Source: Rhodoblastus sp. (GTDB lineage: Bacteria; Pseudomonadota; Alphaproteobacteria; Rhizobiales; Beijerinckiaceae). From it: a stretch of DNA of 64,000 nucleotides. Below the pieces are notes generated by a model, which saw only the letters and a list, made by a program, of their open reading frames with translations, searched no databases and had not been told where the DNA came from. Positions within the stretch are counted from its first letter, which is position 1, and each line of letters starts with the position of its first letter. This document shows positions 28,831-61,108 of the stretch, in pieces. The position numbers and the translations under genes are program-made. Where the stretch lies: the NCBI GenBank assembly GCA_036796555.1, contig DAIRCS010000002.1, positions 10,233-74,232 of the forward strand. Direction: 5' to 3'.

Positions 28831-28949
28831 TCCGTGCCTCCGTATTGCGAGCGCGGCGGCGATCCGTTCAGGCCGCGCGCGCGAGTTTCAGCGAGAGCTT
28901 GCGGTTCGCGATCGTTCGACGTCGCGCTGCGCGGACGCCGGGCGAACCA

Positions 28950-45427: not shown

Positions 45428-46492
45428 CTATCTGGCCTCGCATTCGCCGAAGGCGAGACAGGCGATCTTGCGATTGACGTCGGTATCGCAGCTACCACCC
45501 TGTTGCGCGAAGTTGCGCCAGAAAAAGACTGCGTTTATCCCGCGTCTTGAAACGATTGATTTCACGACCGCAGCGTCGCGCAGACTGGTGTTCGCCAGCT
45601 CGAACGCCACCAGCAGCTTTGCGGGATCGGGCTGGCCCAGCACGGCCAGCTGCGAATCGAACGAGCGGGCGATGTCGCCTTGACGGTTCCTCGACCACAG
45701 AAAAATCGAGATACGGTCGAAAGCGCCCATCAATTCGTGGGCGTTGCTGGCGTCGATGCCGGTGGATTGTTGCGTCGGCGCGTCGAGCGGGTTCGTGTAG
45801 AGGATCGCCTTTTTGCCGGCGCTGTGAACGAGCTTGGCGTATTCCAGAAGGAAGCTGCGCGTGCGGGCTGGCGTCCGGCCGTCCTGGACCTCGTAGTCGA
45901 GCAAAACGCCCTCGGCGTTTTGGGGCAATCGCTTGTCCCAGATCAGGCAGGTGTCGGTCGTCGTCCGCGCGGGATCGGCCTTGGTCAGCTGGACGCCGCC
46001 GTCGCGTGCGTATCGTTGGGCCTGGCCGTCGAGACCGAGCGCTGTCGCCGTCTGGGCGAGCGTGCAGGCGTCCGCGGTGTTCGCCGAAGAAAAATGGAGC
46101 TGTGTCGGGCCGCGCGGCGTGACCCGCGGCCCGAAATTGGGTTTGGGAACCCTTCTCGGCCCGTGATTGCCCCATTGCCAGTAATAGACCGGAAAAGAAG
46201 AGGCGCTTGCGTCGATCGCATCCAAATTCATCGTCGCGAAGGCGGACGCCGGGAAATACGCGGAACGGCCCCTGGCGCCGTCGCGCGGGGGCGGCGCGTT
46301 CTGCAGGATCGTAACCGAGGGCTTGCGGCTGCCGTCGAAACAATTGGCGTCCGAATTCGCCGGGGCCGCACGAACGCTGGTCGGGCCTGAGAAACCATAC
46401 GCGAGAAGGTAGAGCAGCAGCGCCAGCCCGAAAAAGGCGCGGGAACTCGTCGTCCGTGGCGCTCGCGGCAAAGGCATTCCAGATCGTTCCAA
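45428..46492 (-). CDS. hypothetical secreted protein (possibly polysaccharide-active; fold not recognised)
   Basis: 354-aa ORF with a signal/TM-like N-terminus (AFFGLALLLYLLAYGF...VRAA) and non-artefactual composition (Tyr, Trp, Asn, Lys present). I recognise no motif. The start could be the ATG at 46477. Confidence 0.45.
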   Translation of the reverse strand: MERSGMPLPRAPRTTSSRAFFGLALLLYLLAYGFSGPTSVRAAPANSDANCFDGSRKPSVTILQNAPPPRDGARGRSAYFPASAFATMNLDAIDASASSFPVYYWQWGNHGPRRVPKPNFGPRVTPRGPTQLHFSSANTADACTLAQTATALGLDGQAQRYARDGGVQLTKADPARTTTDTCLIWDKRLPQNAEGVLLDYEVQDGRTPARTRSFLLEYAKLVHSAGKKAILYTNPLDAPTQQSTGIDASNAHELMGAFDRISIFLWSRNRQGDIARSFDSQLAVLGQPDPAKLLVAFELANTSLRDAAVVKSIVSRRGINAVFFWRNFAQQGGSCDTDVNRKIACLAFGECEAR

Positions 46493-46636: not shown

Positions 46637-48202
46637 ATGACTGAACAGTCCCAATCTGCGCTGTCGTCGTTGCGTGATCGACTTCAAGCGCGTTCGGCCG
46701 ATTTTTCCAAGGATTCCACCGCAGGAGACCGGGCCCGTGTCGGCTTGCCGCCTTTGCCGCGGCGTCCCGCCCGGCCGGACGGGGTCGTGTTCGAGGCGCC
46801 GCTTTCCGCAGGCGATGTGTGGCAGCCCTCCCAGGAGCTTCACGTCGTTCATTCGCGCGACGATGATGCGGACGGCGCGCCCGCCGCCGTCGATGAATTG
46901 CAGGCGCGGCGCGACGCCCGAACTGTCGCGGAGGCTGGCGCGGCGTCGAAGATGCCTGCGCGCGGTTTCCAAAGCCAGCCGGAGATCGAAGCCGACGACG
47001 AAACTTCCCCGATTTCATCGCTGATGCGCTTGCCGTCCTTGCAGCGCGCGCGGGAAGGCTGGCTGTTCGTTAGTTTCCTGATGGTCGTCGCGTTGCCGGT
47101 GATAGCCGCGACGCTTTATTACGCCATTCTCGCCAAGCCCCAGTATACGGCGGAGTTTCGTTTTTCGGTCACCGAGCAGACTCCTGCCCTGCCTGGAGCG
47201 CAAGCTCCTCCGTCCAATTCGTTGTCGGGAGGCGGGTCGTCGTCGGCGGCGATGGCCACGCTCGCGGCGGGGATGGGAAGCGGCACGCTCAGCAGCGGGA
47301 CGGTCCAGAATTATATCGTCGTAGACTTCGTGAAGAGCCGGGAGGCGGTCGAAGGACTGCAGAAGCAGCTTCAGTTGAAGTCGCTGATGGCTAAGGGCGA
47401 CATTCTGTACAGGGTCGATCAGGAGGCGCCGACGGAATCGTTCATGCCCTTCTGGGGCAATATGGTCGATGCCGATTTCGATCAGGTGACAGGTCTGGCC
47501 TATGTGCGCGTGCGCGCATTCTCGCCGAGCGATGCGCTGAACATCGCGACGACGCTCATGCACATGAGCGAAAAGCTCGTGAATGACATGGCCAATCGGG
47601 CGAACGAGGATTCCGTGAAATTCGCGGAGCAGGAGGTTAAACGCGCGGAGGTTCGGGTGACCGAGGCCGCCAAGGCGCTCTCCGAATTCCGCAAGGCCGA
47701 CAATGTAATCGACCCGAACAGCAGCGCGGTGCAAACCAACAATAATCTGGTGCTGACGCAGCGGCAGGCGCTGCTTCAGCTGCAAACGGAACTTGCTTCG
47801 CTGGAACGCCAGTCGCTTGCTCGCAATTCTCCGGTCGCCGCCAATCTGGCCGCGCGCATCGCCGCGGGAAAGGCGGAGCTCGAGCGTTTGCAGAACGAGA
47901 CGCGCGAGCAGAGCGCCGGGCGCGGGGCGCTCGCGGGGCTGGTCGGACGATACGAGCAGCTTGACCTCGAACGTCAATACGCCAATACGGCCTATATGAG
48001 CGCGCTCCTGGCGCGGGATCAGGCGCGCGCGAACGCCGCCGCGCAGCACATCTATCTGACTCCCTACGCAAAGCCGTTCCTGCCGGAGGAATCGACCTAT
48101 CCGAAACCGATCCGCTCCTTGCTTCTGATCTTTGGCGTGGCGATGTTCGTGTGGCTGATCGGTCTCCTGATCGTACGGACCGTGCAGGATCATCAGTTGT
48201 GA
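46637..48202 (+). CDS. kpsE: capsule polysaccharide export inner-membrane protein, KpsE/RkpR-like (PCP-3 family)
   Basis: TM helix WLFVSFLMVVALPVIAATLYY, then AKPQYTAEFRFSV, a long coiled periplasmic region and a C-terminal TM helix (LLLIFGVAMFVWLIGLLIV). Followed by kpsM/kpsT-like genes. The ~130-aa N-terminal extension makes the start uncertain. Confidence 0.7.
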   Translation: MTEQSQSALSSLRDRLQARSADFSKDSTAGDRARVGLPPLPRRPARPDGVVFEAPLSAGDVWQPSQELHVVHSRDDDADGAPAAVDELQARRDARTVAEAGAASKMPARGFQSQPEIEADDETSPISSLMRLPSLQRAREGWLFVSFLMVVALPVIAATLYYAILAKPQYTAEFRFSVTEQTPALPGAQAPPSNSLSGGGSSSAAMATLAAGMGSGTLSSGTVQNYIVVDFVKSREAVEGLQKQLQLKSLMAKGDILYRVDQEAPTESFMPFWGNMVDADFDQVTGLAYVRVRAFSPSDALNIATTLMHMSEKLVNDMANRANEDSVKFAEQEVKRAEVRVTEAAKALSEFRKADNVIDPNSSAVQTNNNLVLTQRQALLQLQTELASLERQSLARNSPVAANLAARIAAGKAELERLQNETREQSAGRGALAGLVGRYEQLDLERQYANTAYMSALLARDQARANAAAQHIYLTPYAKPFLPEESTYPKPIRSLLLIFGVAMFVWLIGLLIVRTVQDHQL

Positions 48203-49011
48203 CACTCGTCCGCACGTCGCGCCGGACTAGCCTGAGGCAATCTTTTCGGATTCAGTGGGCCATACTGCGCGCTGTAACCCGGAGGGAAGTCACCACAGTA
48301 TTTGGCGTAGGCTACGGAATTGCTTTTGTCGCAGCTTTGCTGGAGCCTGTGTTTCACATCGGCATAATCGCGCTCTGGCACTGGCTGATTCGTGTCAACT
48401 CGATTTACGGTCCAAGCAAGGTTCTGTTTATTAGCTCCGGCCTGTACCCGTTGTTCGTATTCGTGCACTTGTCGACTTCTTTTACCGCGGTCGCGAGATC
48501 GGAGATCTCTGAGCGCCGTTTGCCGACGGTGCGGCTATCCGATGTTATATTGGCGCGGGCCGCGGTGAAGTTGCTTGTCTATGTAGCGGTGGGGGTCGTG
48601 CTTTTCGGCGGGATCGCTCTTTTCATCACGCCGATGGCTGTGCCCCACGATCCTTCGCGTGTTTTGCTCGCGATCGCATTGCTTGCCGTGATCGGCGTCG
48701 GGATGGGCTTTTGCAATATCGCCATAGAATCTGTGCTGCCCATCTGGCACATGATCTATTCGCCATTGTCGCGAAGCATGATGCTATTTGCGGGTGTCCT
48801 GTACGTACCGGACTTTCTTCCGCCTTTTCTGCGAGGGTGGTTGGCATACAACCCGATCTTGCATGAGGTCATCTTGTTTCGGCAGGGCTTCTATCCCAAC
48901 TTTCCGTCGATATCCTATAGGCCGGGATATATGGCGGTCAGCGCCGGCGTCGTGCTATTCGTCGGGCTCGGATCGATGCGACTCATGACGAGGCGCCTTG
49001 ATGATCGTTGA
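48199..49011 (+). CDS. kpsM: capsule export ABC-2 type permease, KpsM/RkpS-like
   Basis: GTG at 48199 overlaps the kpsE-like stop (GTGA). About 6 hydrophobic helices and about 270 aa, with position typical for KpsM. Confidence 0.7.
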   Translation: MTLVRTSRRTSLRQSFRIQWAILRAVTRREVTTVFGVGYGIAFVAALLEPVFHIGIIALWHWLIRVNSIYGPSKVLFISSGLYPLFVFVHLSTSFTAVARSEISERRLPTVRLSDVILARAAVKLLVYVAVGVVLFGGIALFITPMAVPHDPSRVLLAIALLAVIGVGMGFCNIAIESVLPIWHMIYSPLSRSMMLFAGVLYVPDFLPPFLRGWLAYNPILHEVILFRQGFYPNFPSISYRPGYMAVSAGVVLFVGLGSMRLMTRRLDDR

Positions 49012-49180: not shown

Positions 49181-49846
49181 ATGGTTGTTCTTGAAACCGT
49201 TTCGCTGTCTTTTGAGACCAAGGGGCGTCGGCAGGTCATTTTCGACAAACTTGTCGGCATGTTGCCTACGAACAAGCGCTTTATCATTCTTGGCGCCCCC
49301 GGTTCCGGTAAATCCATCCTCATCAAGATGGTCGCTGGTCTGATACGGCCGGATTCCGGCTCGATCGAGAGAATGGCGCGCCTTTCCTATCCCGTCGGCT
49401 TTGGCGCCTGGTTCCGGCCCAAACTGACCGTCAAGCAGAACCTCGGCTACGCAGCCGACGTCTACGAAGTCGATCGGGACGAACTGATCGAATTCGTCGG
49501 CGAAGTCACGCGATTGCGCTACTGTTTCAGTATGAAATACGGCGAATTGCCTCCGCTGATGCGAGCTCAGCTGCACTATGCGACGAGTTACGCCATACCT
49601 TTTGACACCTATCTGATCGACGGTCTCATCGGCGCGGGCGATGAAGAGTTTCGGCTAACTTGCGACTCGATGTTCGAAGCGCGTGCGGCGGAAAGCGGGA
49701 TCATCATGGCAACCCGCCATATTCAGCATGCAAAGAAGTATGGCGATTGCGGCGCCCTGCTGAGCAACGGGAAGTTGACCTTCTTCGATGATGTCAATTT
49801 GTTGGTTCAGGCTTACCGGGAGAGCAAGACCGAAGTCCAGGATTAA
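49181..49846 (+). CDS. kpsT: capsule export ABC ATP-binding protein, KpsT/RkpT-like, with degenerate signature and Walker B
   Basis: GAAGGAGG precedes the ATG. Walker A GAPGSGKS. Aligns by eye to the KpsT layout (...MRAQL.YA....FDTYLIDGLIGAGDEEF...), but the residue after the Walker B Asp is Gly (GGT 49622-49624). Confidence 0.7.
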   Translation: MVVLETVSLSFETKGRRQVIFDKLVGMLPTNKRFIILGAPGSGKSILIKMVAGLIRPDSGSIERMARLSYPVGFGAWFRPKLTVKQNLGYAADVYEVDRDELIEFVGEVTRLRYCFSMKYGELPPLMRAQLHYATSYAIPFDTYLIDGLIGAGDEEFRLTCDSMFEARAAESGIIMATRHIQHAKKYGDCGALLSNGKLTFFDDVNLLVQAYRESKTEVQD

Positions 49847-50000: not shown

Positions 50001-50702
50001 ATGCTTTGCTCCCGATCGAATGGAATTCGCGCTTCGGCCATTGCGCTCACTTTCTCCTGCGCCTCCGCCATGGCGTCGGAATGCGACGGACATCCGGTGC
50101 AAACAGTGGAATTTCGGGGGAGGCCGATGACAGTTCGTATCGGGAACATGGCGCGGGCGCTGCCTGAGAACAGCGTTGTTGTTCTCGGCGATTCCATTGT
50201 GGCGCGTTGGCCGAAGCCGCAATTGGCCGGTGTCCTCGGCGACCCGATCGTCGTTCTTGCGAACGGCGGCGACAGGATCGAAAATACAAACTGGACTTTG
50301 ACTCAGGTCGACCAGAGCAAGGCCAGGACGGTCAGGCGCGTCGTATCCGAGGTCGGCACGGCGAATCTCACTGACACCGGCTGCGAGTTCGTGGCGAGAA
50401 CCCGAGCGTATTTCCAGAATTTGAGACGCGTTTTCTCAAATGCGAAAATCTACGCATTGAACATCTATCAAAAAGGTCTCGGCGGGCGCGCACGGGTTGA
50501 GCAGGTCCGGGCGGCGAACGAAGCCATAAGATCGGCTGCGGCCGACAATAACATCGCATATGTCGATATCCACGACCCTCTGGAGAACAAGTGCGTTGGT
50601 CAGGAGAGTTGCGCGCTGCTGGAAGCAAATCGTGTGCATCCATCCCAAGCGGGATACGATTTGTTCACCGCTGTCCTGCAAGACGCCATGCGCCGGCGAT
50701 AG
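50001..50702 (+). CDS. secreted SGNH/GDSL-family hydrolase (esterase/acyl-modifying)
   Basis: ATG at 50001 gives the signal peptide MLCSRSNGIRASAIALTFSCASAMA. Block I VVVLGDSIV, GTANL, and block V ...RVHPS. An upstream in-frame ATG at 49911 is possible. Confidence 0.6.
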   Translation: MLCSRSNGIRASAIALTFSCASAMASECDGHPVQTVEFRGRPMTVRIGNMARALPENSVVVLGDSIVARWPKPQLAGVLGDPIVVLANGGDRIENTNWTLTQVDQSKARTVRRVVSEVGTANLTDTGCEFVARTRAYFQNLRRVFSNAKIYALNIYQKGLGGRARVEQVRAANEAIRSAAADNNIAYVDIHDPLENKCVGQESCALLEANRVHPSQAGYDLFTAVLQDAMRRR

Positions 50703-50848: not shown

Positions 50849-52804
50849 ATGACCTCGATCGTCGATCTCCCGTGGCTGCCGGCCGCTCCTGAAAATTTCA
50901 CGAAGCTGTGCAGGCAGTTCTCGCAGAGCGAAGGGCCTGCCGGCGGAGAAGCTCAAGCGCTCGCCAACTATCGTCTTAATCCGTCGCAATCGGGCGCCTT
51001 GACGCGCGCAATCGCCAAGCGACGCAAAACGACCGATAACTTTTCTCCGCTCACGCCGCTGCGGCTCGGCATTCTCTCGAATGCGACGACCGACGTGATC
51101 GACGATTGCATCCCCGCCGCCGCGCTGCGTCACGGCGTAGTCGTCGAATATGTGTCTTCGCCGTATGACCAGGTCGTACAGCAAGCGCTGGATCCGAATT
51201 CCATCGTCAACACAAGCAAGCTGGACCTGGTGCTGCTCGCCGTCGATCATCGATGGCTGCAACTCGACCGTCCCTCTCTTGCGACAGCCGATGCGAACAA
51301 GGTCACGGCTGCATTGCAGAAGCTGCGCAGCGTGATCCAGGCGTTGCGCCAGAACGGCGTCGCCACGATCCTGCAGACCGTTCCGACTCCGCCCATGTCG
51401 CTGTTCGGCAGCTTCGATCGTCGCGTGTCCGGAACGGTGCGCGCCATGATCGACGAGATCAACCGCCAGATACCGGCGCTCGCCGCGGAAGCAGGCGGCT
51501 ATATCCTGGACGTCGCGGCGCTCGCGGAGCGTGTCGGCTCGGACCGATGGTTCGATCCGGTACAATGGGCGGCTTATAAGCTTCCCTTTGCATCCGATGT
51601 CGTGCCCGCTTATGCCGATATGGTTGGTCGGCTGCTTGGCGCGGTGGCGGGCAAGGCGCGAAAATGCCTCGTTCTCGATCTCGACAACACCGTCTGGGGA
51701 GGCGTGATCGGCGACGACGGCCTTGAAGGCATCAAGATCGGACAGGGCAGCGCGCTTGGCGAAGCGTTTCTCTCCGTCCAGCATGCGGCGTTGGATTTGC
51801 GCGAGCGCGGTATAATACTGGCGGTCAGTTCGAAGAACGACGACGCCGTCGCGCGCGGCCCGTTTCGCGATCATCCCGACATGGCCTTGCGCGAATCTCA
51901 TATTTCGGCGTTTCAAGCCAACTGGTCCGATAAGCCCAGCAATCTGAAAGCCATCGCCGCCAGCCTGAACATCGGCGTCGATGCGCTCGTGTTCCTCGAC
52001 GACAACCCGGTCGAACGCGCCCAGGTTCGCGCGGCGCTGCCCATGGTGGCCGTTCCGGAATTGCCGCGGGATCCAGGCTGGTATGCGTGGTATCTCGCCG
52101 CCGCCGGATATTTCGAATCCGTCGCTTTTTCGGCCGAAGACACGATGCGCCTGGCGTCTTACGCCACCGATGCCCAACGCGCCAAGCTTCTCGAGCAGTC
52201 GCATGATCTCGGCGACTACCTGAGTTCGCTGCGCATGGAGATGGAAATTGCGCCGTTCGACGTTCAGGGACGACAGCGTATCACGCAGTTGATCAACAAG
52301 ACCAATCAGTTCAACCTGACGACACGTCGCTACAAGGAAGGGGACGTCGAATCCTTCGAGACCGATCCGTCCACATTCACGATGCAGGTGCGACTGCGCG
52401 ACTCCTACAGCGACCTGGGCATGATCGCCGTAGTGATCTGCAAGAGCTCCGAGACAGACGCCGCGCGGGAATGGCGCATCGACACCTGGTTGATGAGTTG
52501 CCGCGTCCTTGGACGGCGGGTTGAAGAAGCAATGCTCGCGCATGTGCTCGAGCACGCCAAAGCGCACGACGTGCGCCGATTGATCGGAACCTACATTCCC
52601 ACCGCCAAGAATTCGATGGTCGCCGATCTTCTCGGTCGACTCGGATTCGCGATGCGCTCGGAAACGGCCGACGGCGTGCGGACTTACGAATTGGATGTCG
52701 AACAGTATGTTGCGCCCGCCGATTTGCCGTTCTTGATGATTACAACGCCGAAGGCGCCCGTTGCGGCGGATTGGAGTCCGGTCGCGGTCGGGGACACTGC
52801 GTGA
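50849..52804 (+). CDS. FkbH-like protein (HAD-superfamily subfamily IIIC phosphatase domain with C-terminal acyltransferase-like domain)
   Basis: ATG at 50849. LRLGILSNATTD N-domain; HAD motif I CLVLDLDNTVWGGVIGDDG (51671-51700 region); SSKN, FLDDNP; C-terminal IDTWLMSCRVLGRRVEEAML. This is the architecture I know for TIGR01686-type FkbH-like proteins. Confidence 0.8.
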   Translation: MTSIVDLPWLPAAPENFTKLCRQFSQSEGPAGGEAQALANYRLNPSQSGALTRAIAKRRKTTDNFSPLTPLRLGILSNATTDVIDDCIPAAALRHGVVVEYVSSPYDQVVQQALDPNSIVNTSKLDLVLLAVDHRWLQLDRPSLATADANKVTAALQKLRSVIQALRQNGVATILQTVPTPPMSLFGSFDRRVSGTVRAMIDEINRQIPALAAEAGGYILDVAALAERVGSDRWFDPVQWAAYKLPFASDVVPAYADMVGRLLGAVAGKARKCLVLDLDNTVWGGVIGDDGLEGIKIGQGSALGEAFLSVQHAALDLRERGIILAVSSKNDDAVARGPFRDHPDMALRESHISAFQANWSDKPSNLKAIAASLNIGVDALVFLDDNPVERAQVRAALPMVAVPELPRDPGWYAWYLAAAGYFESVAFSAEDTMRLASYATDAQRAKLLEQSHDLGDYLSSLRMEMEIAPFDVQGRQRITQLINKTNQFNLTTRRYKEGDVESFETDPSTFTMQVRLRDSYSDLGMIAVVICKSSETDAAREWRIDTWLMSCRVLGRRVEEAMLAHVLEHAKAHDVRRLIGTYIPTAKNSMVADLLGRLGFAMRSETADGVRTYELDVEQYVAPADLPFLMITTPKAPVAADWSPVAVGDTA

Positions 52805-54093
52805 CGCCGTCGGATGCGTCTGCGGACGTCGTCAGGCGGGCGTTTTCGTCAACGGCCGGTCCAGTTCGTATTTTCAAGCAGACGGGAAATTCGACTTCGA
52901 TCGGTTGCCAGAGCGTGACCGGCGGAGAAGTCGTTCATCGCGACACGCCTGCCGATGTTCTCGGCTATGGCTTCATGTTCAATCCCGGCGCGATATCCAG
53001 CGGCGCGCGCGGGATCGGCGCAGCGCGTCTACGGCCCGACACGCTTCGCGATTTCGTGCCGATTTACGAACAGAATTTTCCAGGCAAGTCGCCCGGAGAA
53101 TCTCACGGCACGTCGATGTTGTCCTGGCTTGCCTGGCGCCGCGCGCATTTGGCCCTCCCCCAGGAACTCATGCTCTATCGAGCCCACGGCGCCGCTGGCA
53201 AAAGCCTCCGGGAGATTTCCAAAGGGACTCAGCCGTACGAAAACGGCCTGGTCGAATTGCGCCGCGCCACAGAAATCGCGGCGGGATACGGGAAGAGGGT
53301 CGTCTGCGAAGATTGCATTATCTCCAACGGGACGCAGGAACGAAAAGCAGGCGTTGGCCGATCCCAGTTCGTGCGCGAGCTCGAGGAGATCGCTCGCGAT
53401 CACAAAGTGGATTGGTCCCAGATCACCGGGCAGACGGAGGATATCCGTACCTGGATCACTCAGCTTTCGGCGAACTTCACGCCTGCTCGGGCCATCGGCT
53501 CGGAAATCTCGCTGGCGCAGCTCGACTTCGTCCGTTCGAACAAGCTGGCGAGGATGGTCGGGCCGCGCTATCCCTTCCAATATGCGGACGTGTCGCATTT
53601 TGTCGCCGAACGCGGCTACATCTGGGAGGGTGAATACATAGCGAAGGCGATATTTCAGGAAATCCAGGGCGTCCCCTGGAAGGCGCTCGGTCAGGACATT
53701 CTCATACGCCGAGACGGGCGCAATGTTTTTGTCCATTTCGACCGTGGGGGACTGACCATCGACAAGACGACCTTGCCGCCCGCGCCGCAGCTTGGATTTG
53801 CGGTGCATGAGGGCGACGCGCAGATTTGCATCGAGGACGTTTTGGTGTTCGGCGAGCGGCAGAAAGACGATTCCGTCCGCCTGGCGCTGGAGCGTGAGCC
53901 AGAAGGCGACGACCTTTGGCTGTCTTACTCATTCGATGGGCCAGGATCGCGTCTCCGAAGCGAGGCAGGCTGTCCCGGCCCGGCCGCATGGGGAAATCTG
54001 CGGGATTGCGATCCGACGCCGAGCCGTTACTTCCGCGGTGAATCTCTTCCCAATTGGTGCGTCGTGATGAAAGAGCGAATTCACCGGCAATGA
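52801..54093 (+). CDS. hypothetical protein (weak, unverified resemblance to SASA/SGNH-type carbohydrate esterases)
   Basis: 430-440 aa ORF in the lower-GC island with normal amino-acid composition. GTG 52801 overlaps the FkbH-like stop (GTGA). ...GESHGTSMLSW... and ...IISNGTQE... loosely parallel GQSNM / QGExD blocks. Confidence 0.45.
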   Translation: MTPSDASADVVRRAFSSTAGPVRIFKQTGNSTSIGCQSVTGGEVVHRDTPADVLGYGFMFNPGAISSGARGIGAARLRPDTLRDFVPIYEQNFPGKSPGESHGTSMLSWLAWRRAHLALPQELMLYRAHGAAGKSLREISKGTQPYENGLVELRRATEIAAGYGKRVVCEDCIISNGTQERKAGVGRSQFVRELEEIARDHKVDWSQITGQTEDIRTWITQLSANFTPARAIGSEISLAQLDFVRSNKLARMVGPRYPFQYADVSHFVAERGYIWEGEYIAKAIFQEIQGVPWKALGQDILIRRDGRNVFVHFDRGGLTIDKTTLPPAPQLGFAVHEGDAQICIEDVLVFGERQKDDSVRLALEREPEGDDLWLSYSFDGPGSRLRSEAGCPGPAAWGNLRDCDPTPSRYFRGESLPNWCVVMKERIHRQ

Positions 54094-54347
54094 ACGAGAT
54101 CGCCTTTCTGACGCGCGCGCGGAAGTTGCGTCAGATTGACGGTTGCAGCGCAAACTGATACCGAAACGGGGTAGAATGCTGGCTTTTGCCGCCTAGGCCA
54201 ATCCTTCAGATTCCCATGGAGCAGGAAGGCGCCTAATGCTAAATGCGGCGCTTGCGGCCAATGAAATCAATCGCGCAACTTCTCAGCCGTCTCCAGCCCC
54301 GGATAGGGGACGCGTTGCGGAATCCCGGCTCTGTCGAGAGAGGTGAT

Positions 54348-56261
54348 ATGGATACGATACGTGTCATGGCGATGGGTGGGTGCAACCTGAGGGGTCCCCT
54401 TGCGAAAGTTCGCGGTGTTGGACGTCGGGCGCCGGGTTCCGCTTGGAGCGCTGTTCCCGCAAATTTTCGTGTGGTCGGTCCGCCGTTCTGGACATACACA
54501 TTCGGCGAAATTATCCAGACGCTCGATCTTTATCGCGGAGAGCGAAAGATTCCCGACGAGTATCGACCGATGTGCGGGATCGACCGTAATTTTGTCGCCA
54601 AACCTGAGATTTTGAAAGAAACCGACGTATTTCTGCTCGAGCCAAATACGTCGCAAGAGATATCCTTGGACGGCTATTTTCTGAATCGAGTTCCCGTAAT
54701 CAACATGATGCATGCGCTCCGAGAGCTTGGGGCGGGGTACGGCAGTCAGGTCGGTCAGTGGTATAGTCGCGGAATAAATGGCCTTGATCACGAATTCGCG
54801 CAAAAGGTCGCGAAAGAACTGTCGCCGATACTGCGCGATGCCGATCTGAGTCCGAACGAGAAAGAGCTTTATCTGATGACCCTGAACGAGGCGCGCGGTT
54901 CAGTGCGCGATGTCGGGGAAGGCCTTCGTCAGGTGCTGTCAATCATCGATCGACCAGTAGGGCTTGTGACGTATACTTGGCAGTATCTTGAAGACGGTCG
55001 TTACATCAGTTGGCCGGCGGTCTTCATCAAGCAGGTGCTGGCGGCTGCGGAGAAGTTTTCGATTCCCGCCCTGGAACCGTACAAATACGTTCTCGAGCGC
55101 GGCGCCAAAGCCGCGATGCGCGAGGATATGCGCCATTACAATGGCGAGTTCGAGCCTTTTATGGCAGGGAAACTCGTCAGCTTTCTTCATGCCGTCGCAG
55201 GGCGGGAGTGTATAGACACGACCCAGGCCGTCGACGCCCCCCACTCGATCGCGCCTCGCATTTTCAAACCGCGTCCCTTACTTCATGTAAACGTCGCGTC
55301 GCCATTCGATCTGTATCTTGAACGACCGCCGCAATACGTGCTGAAACTTGCGTCGACTATGCATGTATACGAGCGTTCTTTCCTCTACAATCTGGCCAAG
55401 GAATACTATGCTGGAGATGGAATTATAGTCGATAACGGGGTATATCTTGGCGCTTCGACCTGCTCACTAGGGTATGGGGTTGGCGATTCCGATCTTCGCT
55501 CGAGCGTTATCGCCCATTTCGCAAGGCCAGTCACAGCTACGGATCCGGCAACGGTTACCGCGCCAAAATTAGGTCGCATGCGGCGCGAAGGGCTCGGCGA
55601 CGAGTTTCGTGTCGGCGATTCTGTAGAAGATATCGTCAAAGCAAATATAAAGCCTGTAAGCGATCTCATTAATCTACGGATTGGCGAGACGGTCGACGCT
55701 GGCGGGTCAGGCCCGGATGTCGAGATCTTATTCCAAGACAATTTGAATGGTCGAGACGCCAACCTGCGTGCTATTCATATGTATTATCCGAAGCTAATAC
55801 CAAATAGATCGATTGTCATTCAGAGAAATTATTTTATAGATAGCATGATGTATATAAGGATCCATCAGGAGTGTCTTGCCGAGAAATTTGAGTTCATTGG
55901 CGAGATCGGTTCCACGGCGATCTTTCGATGCAGGGAAAAGATAACCGAGGAGGAGGCGAAAAATGTTGCGGCCGCGTGCAAGGGACTCGACCGGCAATGC
56001 GCCTTTCTCGATGCGGCGACTGAGCGCAGTTCGGACCCGCAGCGGCGCTTGCTGATGATGATCTCCGTCGTGCGCCTGCTCGGTTATTCGCGGAGGGTTG
56101 AGGAGGCGCGCGCTCGCCTGAAGATGGTGGAAGCGGTTGTCGCGGAGATAGGCGAAGACAAGCTCTTGTCGCGCGTAAGGTCTTCGCTGCGAGGCGCCAG
56201 GCATATCTGCGCGCCCGATGAAAGCGGGCAGAGCCTTGCGCAGGCGCGCGAAATCGCGTAG
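54348..56261 (+). CDS. two-domain hypothetical protein: unknown N-terminal domain plus C-terminal TylF/class I methyltransferase-like domain
   Basis: ATG at 54348 follows GAGAGAGGTGAT (the track start at 54243 has no RBS). C-half YAGDGIIVDNGVYLGASTCSLGYG and VEILFQDNLNG...YYPKLIPNRSIVIQRNYF parallel the GD.VE.GV.RGGS and DGDLY...LY..L..GG....DDY blocks of macrocin-O-methyltransferase-like enzymes. Lowest GC of the window. Confidence 0.5.
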   Translation: MDTIRVMAMGGCNLRGPLAKVRGVGRRAPGSAWSAVPANFRVVGPPFWTYTFGEIIQTLDLYRGERKIPDEYRPMCGIDRNFVAKPEILKETDVFLLEPNTSQEISLDGYFLNRVPVINMMHALRELGAGYGSQVGQWYSRGINGLDHEFAQKVAKELSPILRDADLSPNEKELYLMTLNEARGSVRDVGEGLRQVLSIIDRPVGLVTYTWQYLEDGRYISWPAVFIKQVLAAAEKFSIPALEPYKYVLERGAKAAMREDMRHYNGEFEPFMAGKLVSFLHAVAGRECIDTTQAVDAPHSIAPRIFKPRPLLHVNVASPFDLYLERPPQYVLKLASTMHVYERSFLYNLAKEYYAGDGIIVDNGVYLGASTCSLGYGVGDSDLRSSVIAHFARPVTATDPATVTAPKLGRMRREGLGDEFRVGDSVEDIVKANIKPVSDLINLRIGETVDAGGSGPDVEILFQDNLNGRDANLRAIHMYYPKLIPNRSIVIQRNYFIDSMMYIRIHQECLAEKFEFIGEIGSTAIFRCREKITEEEAKNVAAACKGLDRQCAFLDAATERSSDPQRRLLMMISVVRLLGYSRRVEEARARLKMVEAVVAEIGEDKLLSRVRSSLRGARHICAPDESGQSLAQAREIA

Positions 56262-56346
56262 GGCGCAAGTTCATGAGGGGCCTCTAGTGCGTCGTTTCGA
56301 AGCGATGCGGCCATTTCCGGCAATTCAAATCAGAGTGACATCGGCA

Positions 56347-57303
56347 ATGACAATCGACAGCCTCGCCGCTTGGCCCAACTTGCAAAGACTGGCGTCCGCT
56401 GTGCTGGATGCGTGGCCGGCGCATCGTCGCGTCCTCGACAAATATCTCGGCGGCAGAGACGCGCAATTGCTGGATCATTCCGAATATGTCTCGTCGCTTG
56501 TCTGCAAGCTGACGGACCAGGGCGTCTACGACCTTGCGACGCTCGCGCAGTCCTATCGTTTTCTGTGCGAAAAGATCGTGTTGCCCGAAGAATTGTATTT
56601 CAGACGGCACAACGCCTATCGTCTGAGCACCTTCGAAGAGGCTTTTCGCGAAGTCTACAGCAACGACGAAGTCATGCCGAAATACATGGAGGGATTGCTG
56701 ACCTCCTACGCGATCTGGCCTAACCACGTCGCGGCCAGCCATCACTATGCCCACACGTTCTTGAAGGTCATTGCGCCGGGCGCGCGCATGCTCGAGATCG
56801 GCCCCGGACATGGCATGCTGATGTATATCGCCAGTTGCGCCCCGAATATCCGCAGTCTGACGGGGTGGGACGTCTCCCAGGCCAGCCTTGATATGACCAG
56901 GCAGACGCTCGACCATCTCGGCGTGACGCGAGAATATACTCTGGCCGAGCGCAACATTTTCGCCGGCGCCGGAGCCGACGTCGGAACCGAAAAATTCGAT
57001 GCGATCGTCCTCAGCGAGGTGCTCGAACATCTCGAACATCCGATGGAGGCTCTCGCAGCCATCTACGATTTGCTGGAGCCCGGTGGAAAGGCCTGGATCA
57101 ACGTGCCGGTCAACAGTCCGCTGCCCGATCACATCTTCCTTCTGAGGAGCGTTCAGGAAGCCGTGGGGGTGATCGAAAAGGCGGGATTCGCCATCCATTC
57201 CTGGGATGCGTTTCCGGCGGGCGCGGTGACGCTCGAACGCGCCGTAAAGGAAGCCCTGACCATAAACTGCGTCATCATAGCAGAGCGGCCCGCCCGCCAA
57301 TGA
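56347..57303 (+). CDS. class I SAM-dependent methyltransferase
   Basis: ARMLEIGPGHGML (motif I), DAIVLSEVLEHLEHP, LLEPGGKAWINVP. The start may be ATG 56347 or ATG 56305. Confidence 0.75.
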   Translation: MTIDSLAAWPNLQRLASAVLDAWPAHRRVLDKYLGGRDAQLLDHSEYVSSLVCKLTDQGVYDLATLAQSYRFLCEKIVLPEELYFRRHNAYRLSTFEEAFREVYSNDEVMPKYMEGLLTSYAIWPNHVAASHHYAHTFLKVIAPGARMLEIGPGHGMLMYIASCAPNIRSLTGWDVSQASLDMTRQTLDHLGVTREYTLAERNIFAGAGADVGTEKFDAIVLSEVLEHLEHPMEALAAIYDLLEPGGKAWINVPVNSPLPDHIFLLRSVQEAVGVIEKAGFAIHSWDAFPAGAVTLERAVKEALTINCVIIAERPARQ

Positions 57304-58802
57304 TCGCAACCGAGGCGCTGCTGGGCCTGTTCGACGAGAATGCGACGGTCGGTCGACTGCCGGTCGGCAAGGTATTCACGATGGCGGACCAGGAGTCGTT
57401 CGCGCGCTTGTCCGGCGATCGCAATCCCATGCACATGGATTTCGTCGCCGCGCGACGCACGCAGGGCGGAGGGTGCGTCGTGCATGGCGTCCAGGCGACG
57501 CTTTGGGCGCTGGAGCAACTGGCCGCCGCGGGGCTGGATGTCGCGGGCGCCGAAGCGCTAAACGTGAGCTTCTCGAAATTCATCATCGTCGATCAGGCCG
57601 TGGCGCTGCACTTCTCGCGTAAAGGGACCACCGCGCGCGCGGAAATCGTCTTGGGCGGCCAGACCGCGGTCACGATCGCGTTCAAGTCTTCGAGCAAAGT
57701 CGCTGTTTCCACGCCGGCCTCTACGGCGGATTTGTCCGATTATCCTGAATTCGACCTGCTCGAGCGTCCGTTCGAACCTTCGCCCGCGGACATGCAGTCG
57801 TTCGTGCGCTGGATATCGCCGACGGGCTCGAAAGCCGAGTTCGAGGCGGCGTATCCGAACGCTTGTGCGCGTCTGGGAGCCGAAACGATCATGAGCATTT
57901 CGGCGCTGTCGTCCCTGGTCGGTATGGCTTGTCCGGGGCTCAATTCCATTTTCTCGGGCTTTGCGATTCAGTGGACCGCCTCGAGAGGCCAGCGGATCGG
58001 CGTCGGCGCAAGAACCAGGTCCTTCGACGATCGAACGAGGCTGATTCAGATCTCGATTGAAGGCGCACGATTTGTTGGAACCGTCTCCGCGTTCGAACGG
58101 ATGCCGCCCGTCGAAACGTCCCTGGATCGCGTCAGGCAGCGCGTCAGCCCGCGTGAATTCGCCGGCGTCAGGGCTCTCGTCGTCGGCGGCTCGCGTGGGT
58201 TGGGCGCGGCGACCGCCAAATTGCTGGCCGCCGGTGGCGCACAGGTGACGATCACTTACTTTCAGGGCGCGGCGGACGCCGATCGGGTGCGCGAAGAACT
58301 CTGCGCGGCGTTTGGGCCGCAGGCGTGCGCGACAGCCAGGCTCGACATGCGGGACGCCTCGGCGGACCAACTGACGAATCTGACGAGAGACGTCACGCAC
58401 CTCTACTACTTCGCTACGCCGCTGATTGGCGGGCAGAGGTCGGGCTCATTCGACGGAAAGGCGTTTGCGCAATTCGTGGACATCTATGTCCGCGGTTTCT
58501 GCAAGGTTGTGGATGCGATGGCTGGCGCCCGCAAGGGCGAAAAACTGTTTGCATGCTATCCCTCATCGATCTTTGTGGAGAAAAGACCCAAACAGATGAC
58601 TGAATATGCGATGGCGAAAGCCGCCGGCGAGGTTCTCTGCGAAGATCTGATGCGTAACCACGCGGGGCTTTCGATTATCGCGCCGCGTCTGCCGCGCACC
58701 CTGACTGATCAGACCGCCACCGTGCCGCCAGTCGAGACGGCGGACGCGGTCGATGTGATGCTTCCGCATATTCGTTCACAGATGCCGCAGCCGGGGCCAT
58801 GA
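57300..58802 (+). CDS. fusion protein: MaoC-like (R)-hydratase/dehydratase double hot-dog region plus C-terminal SDR ketoreductase domain
   Basis: The hydratase-2 motif FARLSGDRNPMHMDFVAA is followed by a second hot-dog-sized region. Then comes ALVVGGSRGLGAATAKLLAAGGAQVTITY (Rossmann) with YAMAK (YxxxK). ATGA overlap with the upstream methyltransferase. Confidence 0.75.
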   Translation: MIATEALLGLFDENATVGRLPVGKVFTMADQESFARLSGDRNPMHMDFVAARRTQGGGCVVHGVQATLWALEQLAAAGLDVAGAEALNVSFSKFIIVDQAVALHFSRKGTTARAEIVLGGQTAVTIAFKSSSKVAVSTPASTADLSDYPEFDLLERPFEPSPADMQSFVRWISPTGSKAEFEAAYPNACARLGAETIMSISALSSLVGMACPGLNSIFSGFAIQWTASRGQRIGVGARTRSFDDRTRLIQISIEGARFVGTVSAFERMPPVETSLDRVRQRVSPREFAGVRALVVGGSRGLGAATAKLLAAGGAQVTITYFQGAADADRVREELCAAFGPQACATARLDMRDASADQLTNLTRDVTHLYYFATPLIGGQRSGSFDGKAFAQFVDIYVRGFCKVVDAMAGARKGEKLFACYPSSIFVEKRPKQMTEYAMAKAAGEVLCEDLMRNHAGLSIIAPRLPRTLTDQTATVPPVETADAVDVMLPHIRSQMPQPGP

Positions 58803-58848
58803 GGAAAAACCTGGTTGCGGAGAGCCAACTCAAGCGATGGAGAAGCGA

Positions 58849-59094
58849 ATGACCCGGGATTCCGTGAGGGAGATGATTGCGAGAAATCTCGCCGACGTTC
58901 TCGACGAAGATCATATCGACCTGACCGATCAGACGCGGGCGGACGAGGTAGATGGCTGGGATAGCGTCAACCACGTGAAACTGATCATTGCGATCGAGTC
59001 GGAGATGGGCATTCGTTTCGAATCCGATGAAATCACGTCGCCGGAGAACGTCGGCGCGCTGATCGACCTGATCATGTCCAAGAAGGCGGCATGA
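58849..59094 (+). CDS. acyl carrier protein (discrete)
   Basis: 81 aa from the ATG at 58849 (GGAGAA 4 nt upstream; the track start at 58837 is also possible). Phosphopantetheine-site context DEVDGWDSVNHVKLIIAIE (Ser codon 58963-58965). Acidic four-helix-sized protein. Confidence 0.8.
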   Translation: MTRDSVREMIARNLADVLDEDHIDLTDQTRADEVDGWDSVNHVKLIIAIESEMGIRFESDEITSPENVGALIDLIMSKKAA

Positions 59095-59252
59095 CGTCGG
59101 ATTCGGCATGAGGCCGGATGCGCCCATATGCTGAGATCGTTGGATTTCCGGCGATTGTGGCTGCTTGGGCGAACTTTGAAATGGCCCTTATTTGAGCTAC
59201 AAGTTCGGCTAGGTTTTCGTCGTGGCGGGCGTCCATTCGGAGCAAGGTGGAA

Positions 59253-60398
59253 ATGAAAGCTGTTGGTTCGTCTTCGAGCGTAGCGCCGTTTCCGGACGCC
59301 GCGGAGGCGCAGGACAAGATCGACCCGAATCTTGTCAGCGTGGTCGACAGCGAAACGAGCGGCGTCGCAAAGTCGGTCGCGCTCAAGGAGCCGACGCATT
59401 TTTCCGAGAAGTCCTTCAGCCAGTATATCATCGATCTCTGCAATGCCGGTCGGCATCGCGCGGCGGAAATCTACTATCTGAAGAATGTCCGCCAGCTGCT
59501 CGATTCCAACATGAACGGCAAGGAGAAGCTCAATCATCTGATCTATCTGCCCCGCATCATCCAGGGTGGAGGCGGGACGAAGCACGGCTATCAAAAGCTC
59601 CGCATCAAGGCGGCAGGCGTTGAAAGGGCGATCAAGGGTCTGGCGCTGCCCAAAGGCGGCGCGTTTATCGAACTCGGCTGCGGCGCGCATGATCCGCTGG
59701 CCCTGCCAACCTATTTTTATCTGAACGGCTTCGAGCCCTGCTACGGGATCGATCTGTTGCCGCCGCGCACCGAATATTATTCGGCGATGTCGATGTACGA
59801 CATCTGCCTCAATGTTCGTACGTTTCCGCGTTCCTATTGCCGTCCCGGCGTCGAACCGAAGGATATTCTGGCGCGGCTCAAGGATTTCCACCTGACCAAA
59901 TTCGAACAGGGGAATCTTGCCGCCGGTTTTGGCGCCGCCAAGGACAAGGTCAAGTTCCTGCAGGAAGACATCTGCGAGGCTGACATCAAGCGAGAAAGCT
60001 GCTCGCTGATTGTTTCCTTCGCGGTGCTGGAGCATGTGACAGACATCACGCGCGTCGCCCAGACGCTCTACGATCTGCTGCTGCCGGGAGGCGTCGTCTA
60101 TCATTTCGTCGACCTGGCGGATCACAGATCGTATCGCGGCGATGGCGCATTCGGCCCGCTTTCCTTCCTCGCTGATGAAGTCGCGCCGCCGAACATGAAT
60201 CGGTTGCGCGCGCCGCAGATCACGGAAGCGCATGTGGCGGCGGGCTTCGAGGTTCTCAGAGATTCGCGCGAAACCGCGGAAATGCCTGACGAGATCCTGA
60301 AAAACCTGCAGCCGCGCTTCAAGGCCTTCTCTCTGGAAGACGTGAGTGTCATCAAGCAGAGTCTGATTCTGCGGAAGCCTGGAACAGCAAGGACCTGA
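59253..60398 (+). CDS. class I SAM-dependent methyltransferase-like protein
   Basis: FIELGCGAHDP (motif I-like), LIVSFAVLEHV, LLLPGGVVYHF. About 130-aa unknown N-terminal region. The start may be ATG 59253 or GTG 59247. Confidence 0.65.
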   Translation: MKAVGSSSSVAPFPDAAEAQDKIDPNLVSVVDSETSGVAKSVALKEPTHFSEKSFSQYIIDLCNAGRHRAAEIYYLKNVRQLLDSNMNGKEKLNHLIYLPRIIQGGGGTKHGYQKLRIKAAGVERAIKGLALPKGGAFIELGCGAHDPLALPTYFYLNGFEPCYGIDLLPPRTEYYSAMSMYDICLNVRTFPRSYCRPGVEPKDILARLKDFHLTKFEQGNLAAGFGAAKDKVKFLQEDICEADIKRESCSLIVSFAVLEHVTDITRVAQTLYDLLLPGGVVYHFVDLADHRSYRGDGAFGPLSFLADEVAPPNMNRLRAPQITEAHVAAGFEVLRDSRETAEMPDEILKNLQPRFKAFSLEDVSVIKQSLILRKPGTART

Positions 60399-60754: not shown

Positions 60755-61108
60755 TTACTCTTCCTTGCTGGCTCGCCGAATGTGACGCAATCCTTCCATG
60801 ACGGCCGTGAAGATGAGCTTGCGTTCGGATTCGTTTGCGCCGCTCTCGAAATATTCGGCCACCTGACGCATCGTCTCGGGAAAAGCGAGGCAAGCGGCCT
60901 TGAGCCGCACGTTCTGCGCCTCCTTGTAGATCTCGATGACGGCGTTGAGCTCCTTCATCTCTTCTTGCGTCAGGGAATCGAAATCCTCACCAATAGCAAA
61001 GGTTTTCTTCGGGACCACGCCGACTCTTTCGCGGGTCGACCTCCCGTCACTGTCGTGATCGATACGAAGTACTTTGATGTTCTTGTCTTGATCGACGCAC
61101 AGCAGCAT
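60755..61108 (-). CDS. small hypothetical protein (117 aa)
   Basis: ATG at 61108 follows GAGGTGG. Balanced composition (MLLCVDQDKNIKVLRIDHDSDG...EEMKELNAVIEIYKEAQNVRLK...). I recognise no motif. Confidence 0.4.
   Translation of the reverse strand: MLLCVDQDKNIKVLRIDHDSDGRSTRERVGVVPKKTFAIGEDFDSLTQEEMKELNAVIEIYKEAQNVRLKAACLAFPETMRQVAEYFESGANESERKLIFTAVMEGLRHIRRASKEE

Follow-up and report, generated by a model that had tools for sequence, protein, structure and literature searches.

A candidate FkbH- and carrier-protein-fed acylation cassette beside kps-type polysaccharide export genes in Rhodoblastus sp.

A stretch of 64,000 nucleotides from Rhodoblastus sp. (GenBank assembly GCA_036796555.1, contig DAIRCS010000002.1, positions 10,233 to 74,232 of the forward strand; hereafter the window, at its full length) raises the question of what an FkbH-type loading enzyme and a stand-alone acyl carrier protein (ACP) are doing among kps-type polysaccharide export genes. 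An earlier interpretation of the same DNA, made from its letters alone (the sequence-only reading), had proposed that a C3 acyl unit is placed on the dedicated ACP, tailored there and moved to the polysaccharide. Our analysis lends support to the core of that proposal, in that the motifs of loader and carrier are intact, their linkage is tight, and candidate transferases can be named. We hypothesize that the locus is a self-contained acyl-donor cassette for the polysaccharide of the KpsM/KpsT/KpsE exporter, in which lactyl-ACP, possibly O-methylated, would O-acylate the polymer by way of a TviD-like enzyme, and we give this hypothesis slightly better than even credence. Domain families, catalytic residues, gene overlaps and linkage are reported below as the tools returned them; each reaction, donor and product is read from family, linkage or analogy.

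Loader, carrier and tailoring enzymes

The FkbH protein matches TIGR01686 at 277.7 bits (cut-off 146.65) over model positions 2-321 of 323, with further matches to TIGR01681 (HAD-IIIC) and PF21211 (FkbH_N). Residues 58-428, comprising the N-terminal and HAD domains, match PDB 3slr (Bacteroides BF1531), and in an AlphaFold (AF2) model with a pLDDT of 86.8 the C-terminal domain matches GNAT acetyltransferase folds, which bears out the original description of a HAD-IIIC protein with an acyltransferase-like C-terminal domain. HAD motifs I-IV (D277xD279xT281, S328, K362 and D384-D385), as well as C551 within WLMSCRVLGR, are invariant in 40 FkbH homologues. Relatives are numerous: at least 8000 candidates scored at E <=1e-10, the best 120 of them 57-100% identical. 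As a member of the FkbH family, the protein would be expected to charge the ACP with a glyceryl unit drawn from 1,3-bisphosphoglycerate.

The ACP scores 19.8 bits against PF00550 (cut-off 20.8) and about 26 bits against NCBIfam ACP models (cut-offs 66-71). Its homologues carry an ACP annotation in RefSeq records, and the W-D-S motif with the carrier serine is invariant in 35 cassette ACPs. The HAD aspartates and the ACP serine, both singled out by the sequence-only reading as residues to verify, are kept here and in all the homologues aligned.

Between FkbH and the carrier lies a fusion of a MaoC (hydratase-2) dehydratase with a short-chain dehydrogenase/reductase (SDR). The MaoC half matches PF01575 at 43.5 bits and includes SGDRNPMH, and the SDR half matches adh_short at 35.6 bits; D40/N42/P43/H45 of the former, and GGSRGLG and Y436xxxK440 of the latter, are invariant in five homologues. 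Two class-I methyltransferases dependent on S-adenosylmethionine (SAM), MT1 and MT2, complete this set. Homologues of MT1 stand beside FkbH/ACP in 11 loci (L001, L006, L007, L009, L025, L036, L079, L119, L120, L121 and L123), whereas among the loci compared MT2 has a homologue in L123 only. We propose that MT1 acts on the ACP-bound acyl group. Family models and open reading frames (ORFs) place FkbH, ACP, MaoC-SDR, MT1 and MT2 on the plus strand where they had first been called. Three methyltransferase-like proteins had been counted, of which MT1 and MT2 stand, both above the Methyltransf_23 cut-off; the supposed third, at 55.3-56.3 kb, is not a separate gene and forms the C-terminal half of the second of two proteins (54348-56261) that had been listed as large unknowns.

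Linkage of these genes was followed in 27 loci from species-representative genomes and in a metagenome scan started from the MaoC-SDR side, which gave 80 loci, 46 of them with a full-length fusion. ACP adjoins FkbH in 24 of the 27 genome loci, the remaining three being truncated contigs. FkbH is present in 30 of the 46 metagenome loci and near MaoC-SDR in 15 of the 16 that have at least 3 kb on both sides (14 by ORF clustering, L043 by tblastn). FkbH and ACP, and likewise MaoC-SDR and FkbH, are tightly linked in lineages that are unrelated to one another; conservation of this triad in other kps/O-antigen loci was a check named by the sequence-only reading. In Faunimonas pinastri (L001) the genes occur in a rearranged order (u117, epimerase, GT4, GDSL, TviD_N, MT1, MaoC-SDR, ACP, FkbH, unk349-like, kpsT, kpsM), and a closer metagenomic relative (L123) keeps the gene order of the window, without U430 and with GT4, epimerase and GT2 as separate genes. 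Because Faunimonas pinastri and other lineages have it too, in rearranged form, the arrangement is not due to chance.

Clustering of about 1100 neighbouring ORFs found an MBOAT O-acyltransferase in 22 loci, a PglF-type sugar dehydratase in 14 and a protein of the VOC/glyoxalase fold in 11. Further frequent partners are MT1, GDSL/AlgX-type SGNH proteins, KASIII-like proteins, DegT aminotransferases, NeuB and hexapeptide acyltransferases. The neighbour families c21, c25, c34, c39, c40 and c42, together with a 409-aa protein of Sinorhizobium meliloti and a 340-aa protein of Tistrella, stayed unannotated even at E up to 0.5. MaoC-SDR and the VOC-fold protein never occur together: among FkbH loci L001-L123, none of 10 VOC loci has the MaoC-SDR fusion. 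This mutual exclusion points to alternative tailoring of one substrate, and suggests two ways of processing glyceryl-ACP, for example epimerisation at C2 or elimination on the one hand and dehydration plus reduction on the other. MT1 accompanies both types of cassette.

Several of these relatives sit in well-defined polysaccharide loci. A synthase-type exopolysaccharide (EPS) locus is shared by Pandoraea spp., Castellaniella hirudinis, Paraburkholderia unamae and a betaproteobacterial metagenome-assembled genome (L018-L021, L023, L024 and L031), in the order ~800-aa protein, ~570-aa protein, NfrA_C/TPR outer-membrane protein, two small proteins, AlgX-like SGNH protein, FkbH, ACP, MBOAT, VOC and DUF4434; the set resembles a system for O-acylation in the style of alginate, with FkbH/ACP supplying the donor. 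In S. meliloti (L117, strain 1021, pSymB NC_003078.1 617247-647078, reverse complement; L118, strain ml47, CP140955.1 1037642-1067474) the genes VOC-MBOAT-409-aa-ACP-FkbH are followed, about 5.5 kb farther downstream, by an rkpZ-like gene, rkpT, rkpS, rkpR and kpsF. The 409-aa protein is annotated there as a 'TonB-dependent receptor', without Pfam support, and in strain 1021 the FkbH match switches from one frame to another at locus position 15074, possibly through a frameshift. On plasmid pD4M1C of Paroceanicella profunda (L119, 11693-21258), mprF and a gene for an AcvB/VirJ lysyl-phosphatidylglycerol hydrolase come immediately downstream of ACP-FkbH-MT1-VOC-hypothetical, so some cassettes may act on membrane lipids and not on glycans.

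Candidate transferases and the island around them

The two large proteins left without assignment by the sequence-only reading supply the transferase candidates. One is U430, a SASA-like SGNH protein; the other is a 637-aa fusion of a TviD_N-like domain with a Methyltransf_24-like domain. A word-indexed homologue search with the 637-aa protein gave 2 matches only, and in an exhaustive HMMER search each of its domains was found alone in hundreds of proteins. The N-terminal half has a precomputed Pfam match to PF27354 (TviD_N) with E at most 1e-5. It contains G10-G11-C12 and D260-M-R-H263; G10, C12 and H263 hardly vary across 30 homologues, and D260 agrees with the family consensus DLRH, a DxxH motif. 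The TviD_N assignment rests on that precomputed match together with motif conservation. TviD_N is the catalytic domain of TviD, the O-acetyltransferase of the Vi capsule, in which Cys18 and His253 (of D250xxH253) are required for O-acetylation (PMC8760489). Matched by motif, C12 and D260/H263 of the present domain would correspond to TviD Cys18 and D250xxH253, and we propose the N-terminal half as a candidate acyl-ACP:polysaccharide O-acyltransferase. A profile search of the PDB with this domain found no solved relative, single-sequence PDB searches with U430 and the 637-aa protein gave nothing meaningful, and the 637-aa protein has no TPR match, unlike the C-terminal domain of TviD.

TviD_N homologues adjoin FkbH/ACP in L001, L008, L011, L035 and L121. 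Among proteins that consist of this domain alone, the best homologue has ACP, MT1, VOC and an FkbH of 62% identity for neighbours. On metagenome scaffold_180_c1 (L035, 2735-16291) FkbH lies amid three TviD_N proteins of 679, 297 and 551 aa, with a GSCFA-TPR protein, a GT4-TPR protein and amino-sugar genes; an ACP gene was not called there.

The C-terminal half of the fusion has stand-alone homologues of about 320 aa, and 20 of 30 family members match Methyltransf_24 (PF13578); the domain from the window, searched alone, has no Pfam match. The family profile matches the mycobacterial mannoside O-methyltransferase MeT1 (PDB 6g7d) at E 0.007, and its consensus includes a glycine-rich stretch, VDaGxFxGaST, that may be read as SAM-motif-I-like. 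This half is probably a sugar O-methyltransferase, and it is lineage-specific, as MT2 is.

U430 has six relatives in a word-indexed search of 5.8 billion proteins. G29-N30-S31, HGAAG, G177/Q179/R181 (within NGTQDR) and D263xxH266 are invariant in the family and arranged like SGNH blocks; two of the relatives, P0127 and P0128, have an N-terminal extension of about 290 aa. Its AF2 model is of moderate quality (pLDDT 63, pTM 0.69). A Foldseek search with this model returned the tailspike of cyanopodophage Pan3 (9vyh, E 1.7e-13), mammalian sialic acid esterases (8f9o/8f9r), plant and clostridial carbohydrate esterases (2apj, 1zmb) and NanS, and among viral models it matched tail proteins, including those of the Salmonella Vi-capsule phages ViI and Vi06. 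The protein has no signal peptide. We read U430 as an accessory polysaccharide O-acyl esterase or transferase. Its gene may be of phage origin and may have been inserted after FkbH, because neither of the two nearest loci in synteny, Faunimonas (L001) and L123, has it.

The island to which these genes belong spans 45.4 to about 64.8 kb, its edges being the minus-strand gene of a secreted protein (unk349) and a 1047-aa glycosyltransferase (GT) gene that runs beyond the window end. It holds 14 genes: unk349, kpsE, kpsM, kpsT, GDSL, FkbH, U430, the 637-aa fusion, MT1, MaoC-SDR, ACP, MT2, u117 and GT4+GT2 (Table 1). Every gene from kpsE through MT2 lies on one strand, and start and stop codons overlap as GTGA at 48199 (kpsE/kpsM), GTGA at 52801 and ATGA at 57300; the overlaps at the last two positions, which had been read as translational coupling, are real. 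Between window positions 48000 and 62000 the GC content is 54-61%, against 65-70% elsewhere, with its minimum of 54% in the TviD_N-Methyltransf_24 gene, a drop that fits horizontal acquisition of the island.

Table 1. Island features in window positions, with the evidence for each assignment
Feature	Coordinates	Strand	Evidence and remarks
unk349	45428..46477	-	N-terminus signal-peptide-like; island edge; conserved in L001, L005, L123
KpsE-like inner-membrane polysaccharide co-polymerase	46637..48202	+	TIGR01010 BexC/CtrB/KpsE, 186 bits (below cut-off of 437.5); weak VexD match
KpsM-like ABC-2 permease	48199..49011	+	PF01061 ABC2_membrane; start overlaps kpsE stop (GTGA)
KpsT-like ABC ATPase	49181..49846	+	PF00005; Walker A motif
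GDSL/SGNH hydrolase, probably exported	50001..50702	+	PF13472, 52 bits; GDS motif; 233-aa reading
FkbH-type loader: FkbH_N (SGNH-like) + HAD-IIIC phosphatase + GNAT-like domain with Cys551	50849..52804	+	TIGR01686, TIGR01681, PF21211
U430, candidate cytoplasmic SASA-like SGNH carbohydrate O-acyl esterase or transferase + C-terminal beta-sandwich	52801..54093	+	Motifs, predicted fold
TviD_N-like thiol-SGNH domain, candidate O-acyltransferase (N-terminal half of fusion)	54348..55240	+	Precomputed PF27354 match; Cys and DxxH motif
Methyltransf_24-like domain (C-terminal half of fusion)	55270..56261	+	Family matches PF13578; no Pfam match of its own
MT1, class-I SAM methyltransferase	56347..57303	+	Methyltransf_23, _12, _11 above cut-off
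MaoC (hydratase-2) dehydratase fused to SDR ketoreductase	57300..58802	+	PF01575, PF00106; start overlaps MT1 stop (ATGA)
Stand-alone ACP (DGWDS)	58849..59094	+	Weak PP-binding match; W-D-S motif; FkbH linkage
MT2, second class-I methyltransferase, lineage-specific	59253..60398	+	Methyltransf_23, 44.8 bits (above cut-off)
u117, small conserved protein	60755..61108	-	Homologues in L001, L123; no Pfam match
GT4+GT2 two-domain glycosyltransferase, 1047 aa	61611..64000, start beyond window	-	Glycos_transf_1, Glyco_trans_1_4, Glycos_transf_2

The GT4+GT2 enzyme, whose whole gene was read in L032, is the sole glycosyltransferase of the island and is 47% identical to the 1032-aa GT4 of Faunimonas. 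For the GDSL/SGNH gene, which has homologues in L001, L005 and L123, an alternative gene-caller reading gives 191 aa from 50127; the N-terminus of the longer form, MLCSRSNGIRASAIALTFSCASAMA|SE, resembles a signal peptide when judged by eye. No Pfam match and no PDB profile match was found for unk349. This gene travels with the cassette, and in Faunimonas its start overlaps the stop codon of FkbH.

A capsule locus had been proposed here. The exporter set KpsM/KpsT/KpsE is present and the group 2 (kps) capsule locus is incomplete: kpsD, kpsC, kpsS and nucleotide-sugar genes were found neither in the island, nor in the scanned ORFs of the window, nor in the 6 kb beyond its end. The 20 larger ORFs scanned for them at 1-45 kb yielded unrelated metabolism, transport and regulation only, and the missing kpsD, kpsC and kpsS could be encoded elsewhere in the genome. 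The island also contains no VexE/LPLAT-type acyltransferase gene, no MBOAT and no phosphopantetheinyl transferase gene. As had been claimed, no ketosynthase (KS), acyltransferase (AT), polyketide synthase (PKS), nonribosomal peptide synthetase or acyl-ACP synthetase was found in the island; condensation (C), adenylation (A) and thioesterase (TE) domains are likewise missing from it, as are a thiolase and an acyl-CoA ligase that could load the ACP otherwise, and no KS, AT or PKS was found in the flanks either.

Upstream of the island lie a Fur regulator, iron-uptake ABC genes, a cytochrome c peroxidase and a NapC/NirT-type cytochrome, and downstream an IclR-like gene, a UbiE-like methyltransferase, an alpha/beta hydrolase and trehalose genes. 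Farther off, on the minus strand at 27277-30680, a WS/DGAT wax-ester or triacylglycerol synthase adjoins an AMP-binding acyl-CoA synthetase, a pair unrelated to the island; two AraC-type regulator genes (30911-33626) lie right beside it on the same strand.

Proposed pathway and its alternatives

We propose the following order of events. FkbH would accept 1,3-bisphosphoglycerate, as its family membership implies, and its HAD domain would strip the 3-phosphate; the glyceryl unit would then pass to Cys551 of the GNAT-like domain and on to the phosphopantetheine of the ACP, and an ATP-dependent ligase would not be needed. By analogy with PKS loading modules that combine dehydratase and ketoreductase with FkbH and ACP (DH/KR-FkbH-ACP), the MaoC half may dehydrate the beta-hydroxy thioester to the enol-pyruvoyl, i.e. 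pyruvoyl-ACP, and the SDR half may reduce the 2-keto group to give lactyl-ACP; a pathway-reconstruction tool lists an FkbH loading module as giving D-lactate-ACP (PMC7901079). MT1, to judge from its co-occurrence with the other genes, might O-methylate the 2-hydroxyl to give 2-methoxypropanoyl-ACP; this hydroxyl is the suggested target because it is the only one common to the products of MaoC-SDR-type and VOC-type cassettes. The 2-O-methylglycerate bound to a carrier in suomilide biosynthesis (PMC13122637) is a precedent for such a step.

Transfer would follow from homology to TviD: the Cys of the Cys-His SGNH domain, a thiol nucleophile suited to accepting acyl from a phosphopantetheine thioester, could receive the acyl group that the ACP carries and pass it to hydroxyls of the nascent polymer. 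Since the window has no MBOAT, we propose that transfer takes place in the cytoplasm, at the GT4+GT2 polymerase and ahead of export by KpsMT/KpsE. The Methyltransf_24 domain and MT2 probably O-methylate sugars, and U430 and the exported GDSL protein would be accessory, possibly esterases with an editing role or further transferases. In those relatives that pair the cassette with MBOAT and SGNH proteins, the same acyl unit would be handed over outside the cytoplasm, much as in Dlt or AlgI/J/X systems.

Several points weigh against this pathway. The reactions of the cassette and of its close homologues are inferred, and the identity of the acyl group, whether lactyl, glyceryl or other, is suggested by analogy only. 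The three-domain FkbH, with its additional FkbH_N, differs from characterised PKS-type enzymes, in which to our knowledge the N-terminal SGNH-like domain is not found. The ACP scores under the curated ACP cut-offs, and the island has no gene for a phosphopantetheinyl transferase. The activity described for TviD is O-acetyl transfer, and use of acyl-ACP by TviD_N proteins is a proposal; nor is the pairing of FkbH/ACP with TviD_N obligatory, since many of these cassettes lack a TviD_N gene next to them. Finally, kpsD, kpsC, kpsS and sugar-nucleotide genes are missing from the island, so that its genes do not define the acceptor polymer.

The closest alternative keeps the same loading and transfer and differs in the cargo, which would stay at the level of glycerate (glyceryl, or mono- or di-O-methylglyceryl), with MaoC-SDR doing something else, such as inversion at C2 by oxidation and reduction, or acting on another thioester. 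In its favour, two or three domains of the locus are of methyltransferase type, MT1 is found with VOC-type cassettes that lack MaoC-SDR as well, and an FkbH together with an O-methyltransferase has been proposed to make 2-O-methylglycerate on a carrier domain for suomilide (PMC13122637). In Campylobacter jejuni, moreover, strain 12664, in which the FkbH-domain gene cj1302 is a pseudogene, and strain 12661 showed no dimethylglyceric acid sugars (PMC7099621). We nonetheless regard a glycerate-level product as unlikely. A hydratase-2 with intact catalytic Asp and His is expected to dehydrate a beta-hydroxy thioester, and its fusion to a reductase, its tight linkage to FkbH and the DH/KR-FkbH-ACP precedent agree better with the lactyl route. 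MT2 and the Methyltransf_24 domain, besides, are lineage-specific, and the family of the latter resembles sugar O-methyltransferases. It is distinctly improbable that FkbH is no glyceryl loader at all and that its HAD, GNAT and SGNH-like domains serve as phosphatase and/or acyltransferase, with the acyl group (for example 3-hydroxybutyryl or crotonyl, either of them processed by MaoC-SDR) drawn from general metabolism. 3-Hydroxybutyryl decorations are common on rhizobial capsular sugars, the well-flanked MaoC-SDR locus L048 has MBOAT and GDSL genes without FkbH, and FkbH itself has the additional N-terminal SGNH-like domain, with 3slr covering only its N-terminal and HAD domains. Against this stand the end-to-end TIGR01686 match at nearly twice the cut-off, the invariance of all four HAD motifs and of the Cys, and the lack in the island of any KS, thiolase, acyl-ACP synthetase or acyl-CoA ligase.

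Whether the acyl group goes to the polysaccharide or to its lipid anchor was a choice that the sequence-only reading had left open; the partner families favour the polymer and make the anchor less likely. A cassette that makes a reducing-end primer or lipid anchor, replacing the missing KpsC/KpsS or VexE, would account for the lack of kpsC, kpsS and an LPLAT/VexE-type gene in the island, and both the acyl-ACP dependence of Vi capsule anchoring and the position of the Paroceanicella cassette beside the lipid-modification genes mprF and acvB lean the same way. A C3 acid is no membrane anchor, however, and TviD_N, MBOAT plus AlgX/GDSL, and the phage-type O-acyl esterase fold have characterised or named members that acylate or deacylate polymers. 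The cassette also occurs in synthase-type EPS and nonulosonic-acid loci, where such an anchor would be unexpected, and we give the anchor little credence. Less credible again, and in our view very improbable, is that the cassette yields a small diffusible metabolite and borders polysaccharide genes by chance. In the papers found to mention 'FkbH-like', the enzymes do belong to polyketide or nonribosomal-peptide clusters, yet the island has no KS, AT, C, A or TE domain, its start and stop codons overlap along a single strand from kpsE to MT2, the same mixed gene set recurs in another order in Faunimonas and L123, and the recurrent neighbours in about 100 loci are glycan genes.

The methoxymalonyl-ACP pathway (FkbG-K), to which the sequence-only reading had likened the locus, was ruled out as the route. 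The FkbH loader and the dedicated ACP of that analogy are in place; an FkbI- or FkbK-type enzyme and a PKS are not found in the island, none of whose proteins matches the Acyl-CoA_dh or 3HCDH families, and the MaoC-SDR fusion is there instead.

Returning to lactyl-ACP-dependent O-acylation of the polymer as the preferred account of this locus, it may be one case of something broader. FkbH-ACP with interchangeable MaoC-SDR or VOC and an optional MT1 might constitute a general, unrecognised bacterial glycan-acylation pathway, Dlt-like, in which a C3 hydroxy acid is activated by the acyl phosphate of 1,3-bisphosphoglycerate and not by ATP. Three delivery routes would be served: cytoplasmic TviD_N, as in this locus; transmembrane MBOAT plus SGNH/AlgX-like proteins, as in Pandoraea, Paraburkholderia and S. 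meliloti pSymB; and nucleotide-linked amino sugars, as in the NeuB, PglF and DegT loci. We put this generalization forward tentatively, as a possibility somewhat short of even. We rate the system as known enzymes in a new combination with a new acceptor class, in a cassette widespread in bacteria.

In capsules and exopolysaccharides, acyl substituents determine charge, gelling, antigenicity and recognition by phages, and for glyceryl, lactyl and methoxy-acyl groups the donors and enzymes are mostly not known. A general pathway of this kind, if it exists, could explain such substituents, and TviD-family enzymes would accept acyl-ACP donors. A pathway that operates as proposed would also carry FkbH chemistry from polyketide assembly lines to glycan decoration, imply that acyltransferases of both TviD and MBOAT type can use dedicated acyl-ACP pools, and provide parts for polysaccharide ester engineering. 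The locus is a compact and complete candidate pathway, with loader, carrier, tailoring enzymes, transferase, one polymerase and one exporter, and for this reason should suit heterologous reconstitution; the cassette is also present in genetically tractable bacteria (S. meliloti pSymB, Pandoraea and Paraburkholderia).

Comparison with known systems

Full-text literature searches found no characterised FkbH-fed glycan acylation system, in keeping with the sequence-only reading, which knew of no characterised system with this gene content, and the sole link was a remark on the FkbH domain of cj1302. The locus of C. jejuni NCTC 11168 that contains this gene is similar in having an FkbH-domain gene in a glycan-modification setting and a product with an O-methylated C3 acid. 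Presumably it also has ACP and methyltransferase genes. It differs in its acceptor, a nonulosonic acid on flagellin as against a capsule-type polymer, and we found neither MaoC-SDR nor TviD_N reported there. In this flagellar glycosylation locus cj1302 has an FkbH domain, and the product is pseudaminic acid modified with dimethylglyceric acid (PMC7099621). The link between cj1302 and dimethylglyceric acid in the literature is correlative, and cj1302 is not mentioned by Hitchen et al. 2010.

Polyketide loading by FkbH/FkbJ (FkbG-K, OzmB and the tetronate glyceryl-ACP synthases) resembles the present locus in pairing a full TIGR01686 domain with a dedicated ACP, and the expected substrate is again 1,3-bisphosphoglycerate. 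The island differs in its lack of an FkbK-type 3-hydroxyacyl-CoA dehydrogenase, an FkbI-type acyl-CoA dehydrogenase and a KS/AT/PKS consumer, in the added SGNH-like FkbH_N of its loader, and in that its consumers appear to be glycan acyltransferases. Assembly-line loading modules come closer in chemistry. BryA of bryostatin reportedly begins with a DH-KR-FkbH-ACP loading module, and FR901464 is said to be a further fused-module case. OocJ has a DH-MT-FkbH-ACP module (PMC4552970), and BslA of suomilide is arranged as OMT-FkbH-PCP-ST. These modules share with the cassette the activities of dehydratase, reductase, O-methyltransferase, FkbH and carrier, and the predicted products are lactyl or 2-O-methylglyceryl thioesters. 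In the island the activities are on separate proteins, in type-II style, the dehydratase is of the MaoC/hydratase-2 type and not a PKS DH, and there is no extension by KS or condensation domain.

The Vi antigen of Salmonella Typhi offers the nearest parallel for the transfer step. Shared with it are a TviD_N domain with Cys and DxxH, a GT4-containing polymerase, a VexB/C/D-like exporter and the proposed modification in the cytoplasm before export. Acyl-ACP-dependent acylation in Vi capsule assembly has its precedent in VexE (PMC9597891). The island in turn has no tviB/tviC, VexA or VexE, the C-terminal half of its TviD_N protein is Methyltransf_24-like where TviD has a TPR domain that binds the TviE polymerase, and the donor would be a dedicated acyl-ACP in place of the acetyl donor of TviD.

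The relatives of the cassette with FkbH-ACP-MBOAT-GDSL/AlgX, in the 22 MBOAT loci, recall DltABCD and AlgI/J/F/X in combining a dedicated loader and its small carrier with an MBOAT and an SGNH-type transferase. They differ from both in that the loader would be a phosphatase/acyltransferase fed by an acyl phosphate and not an adenylating enzyme, and in that the cargo would be a C3 hydroxy acid as opposed to D-alanine or acetate.

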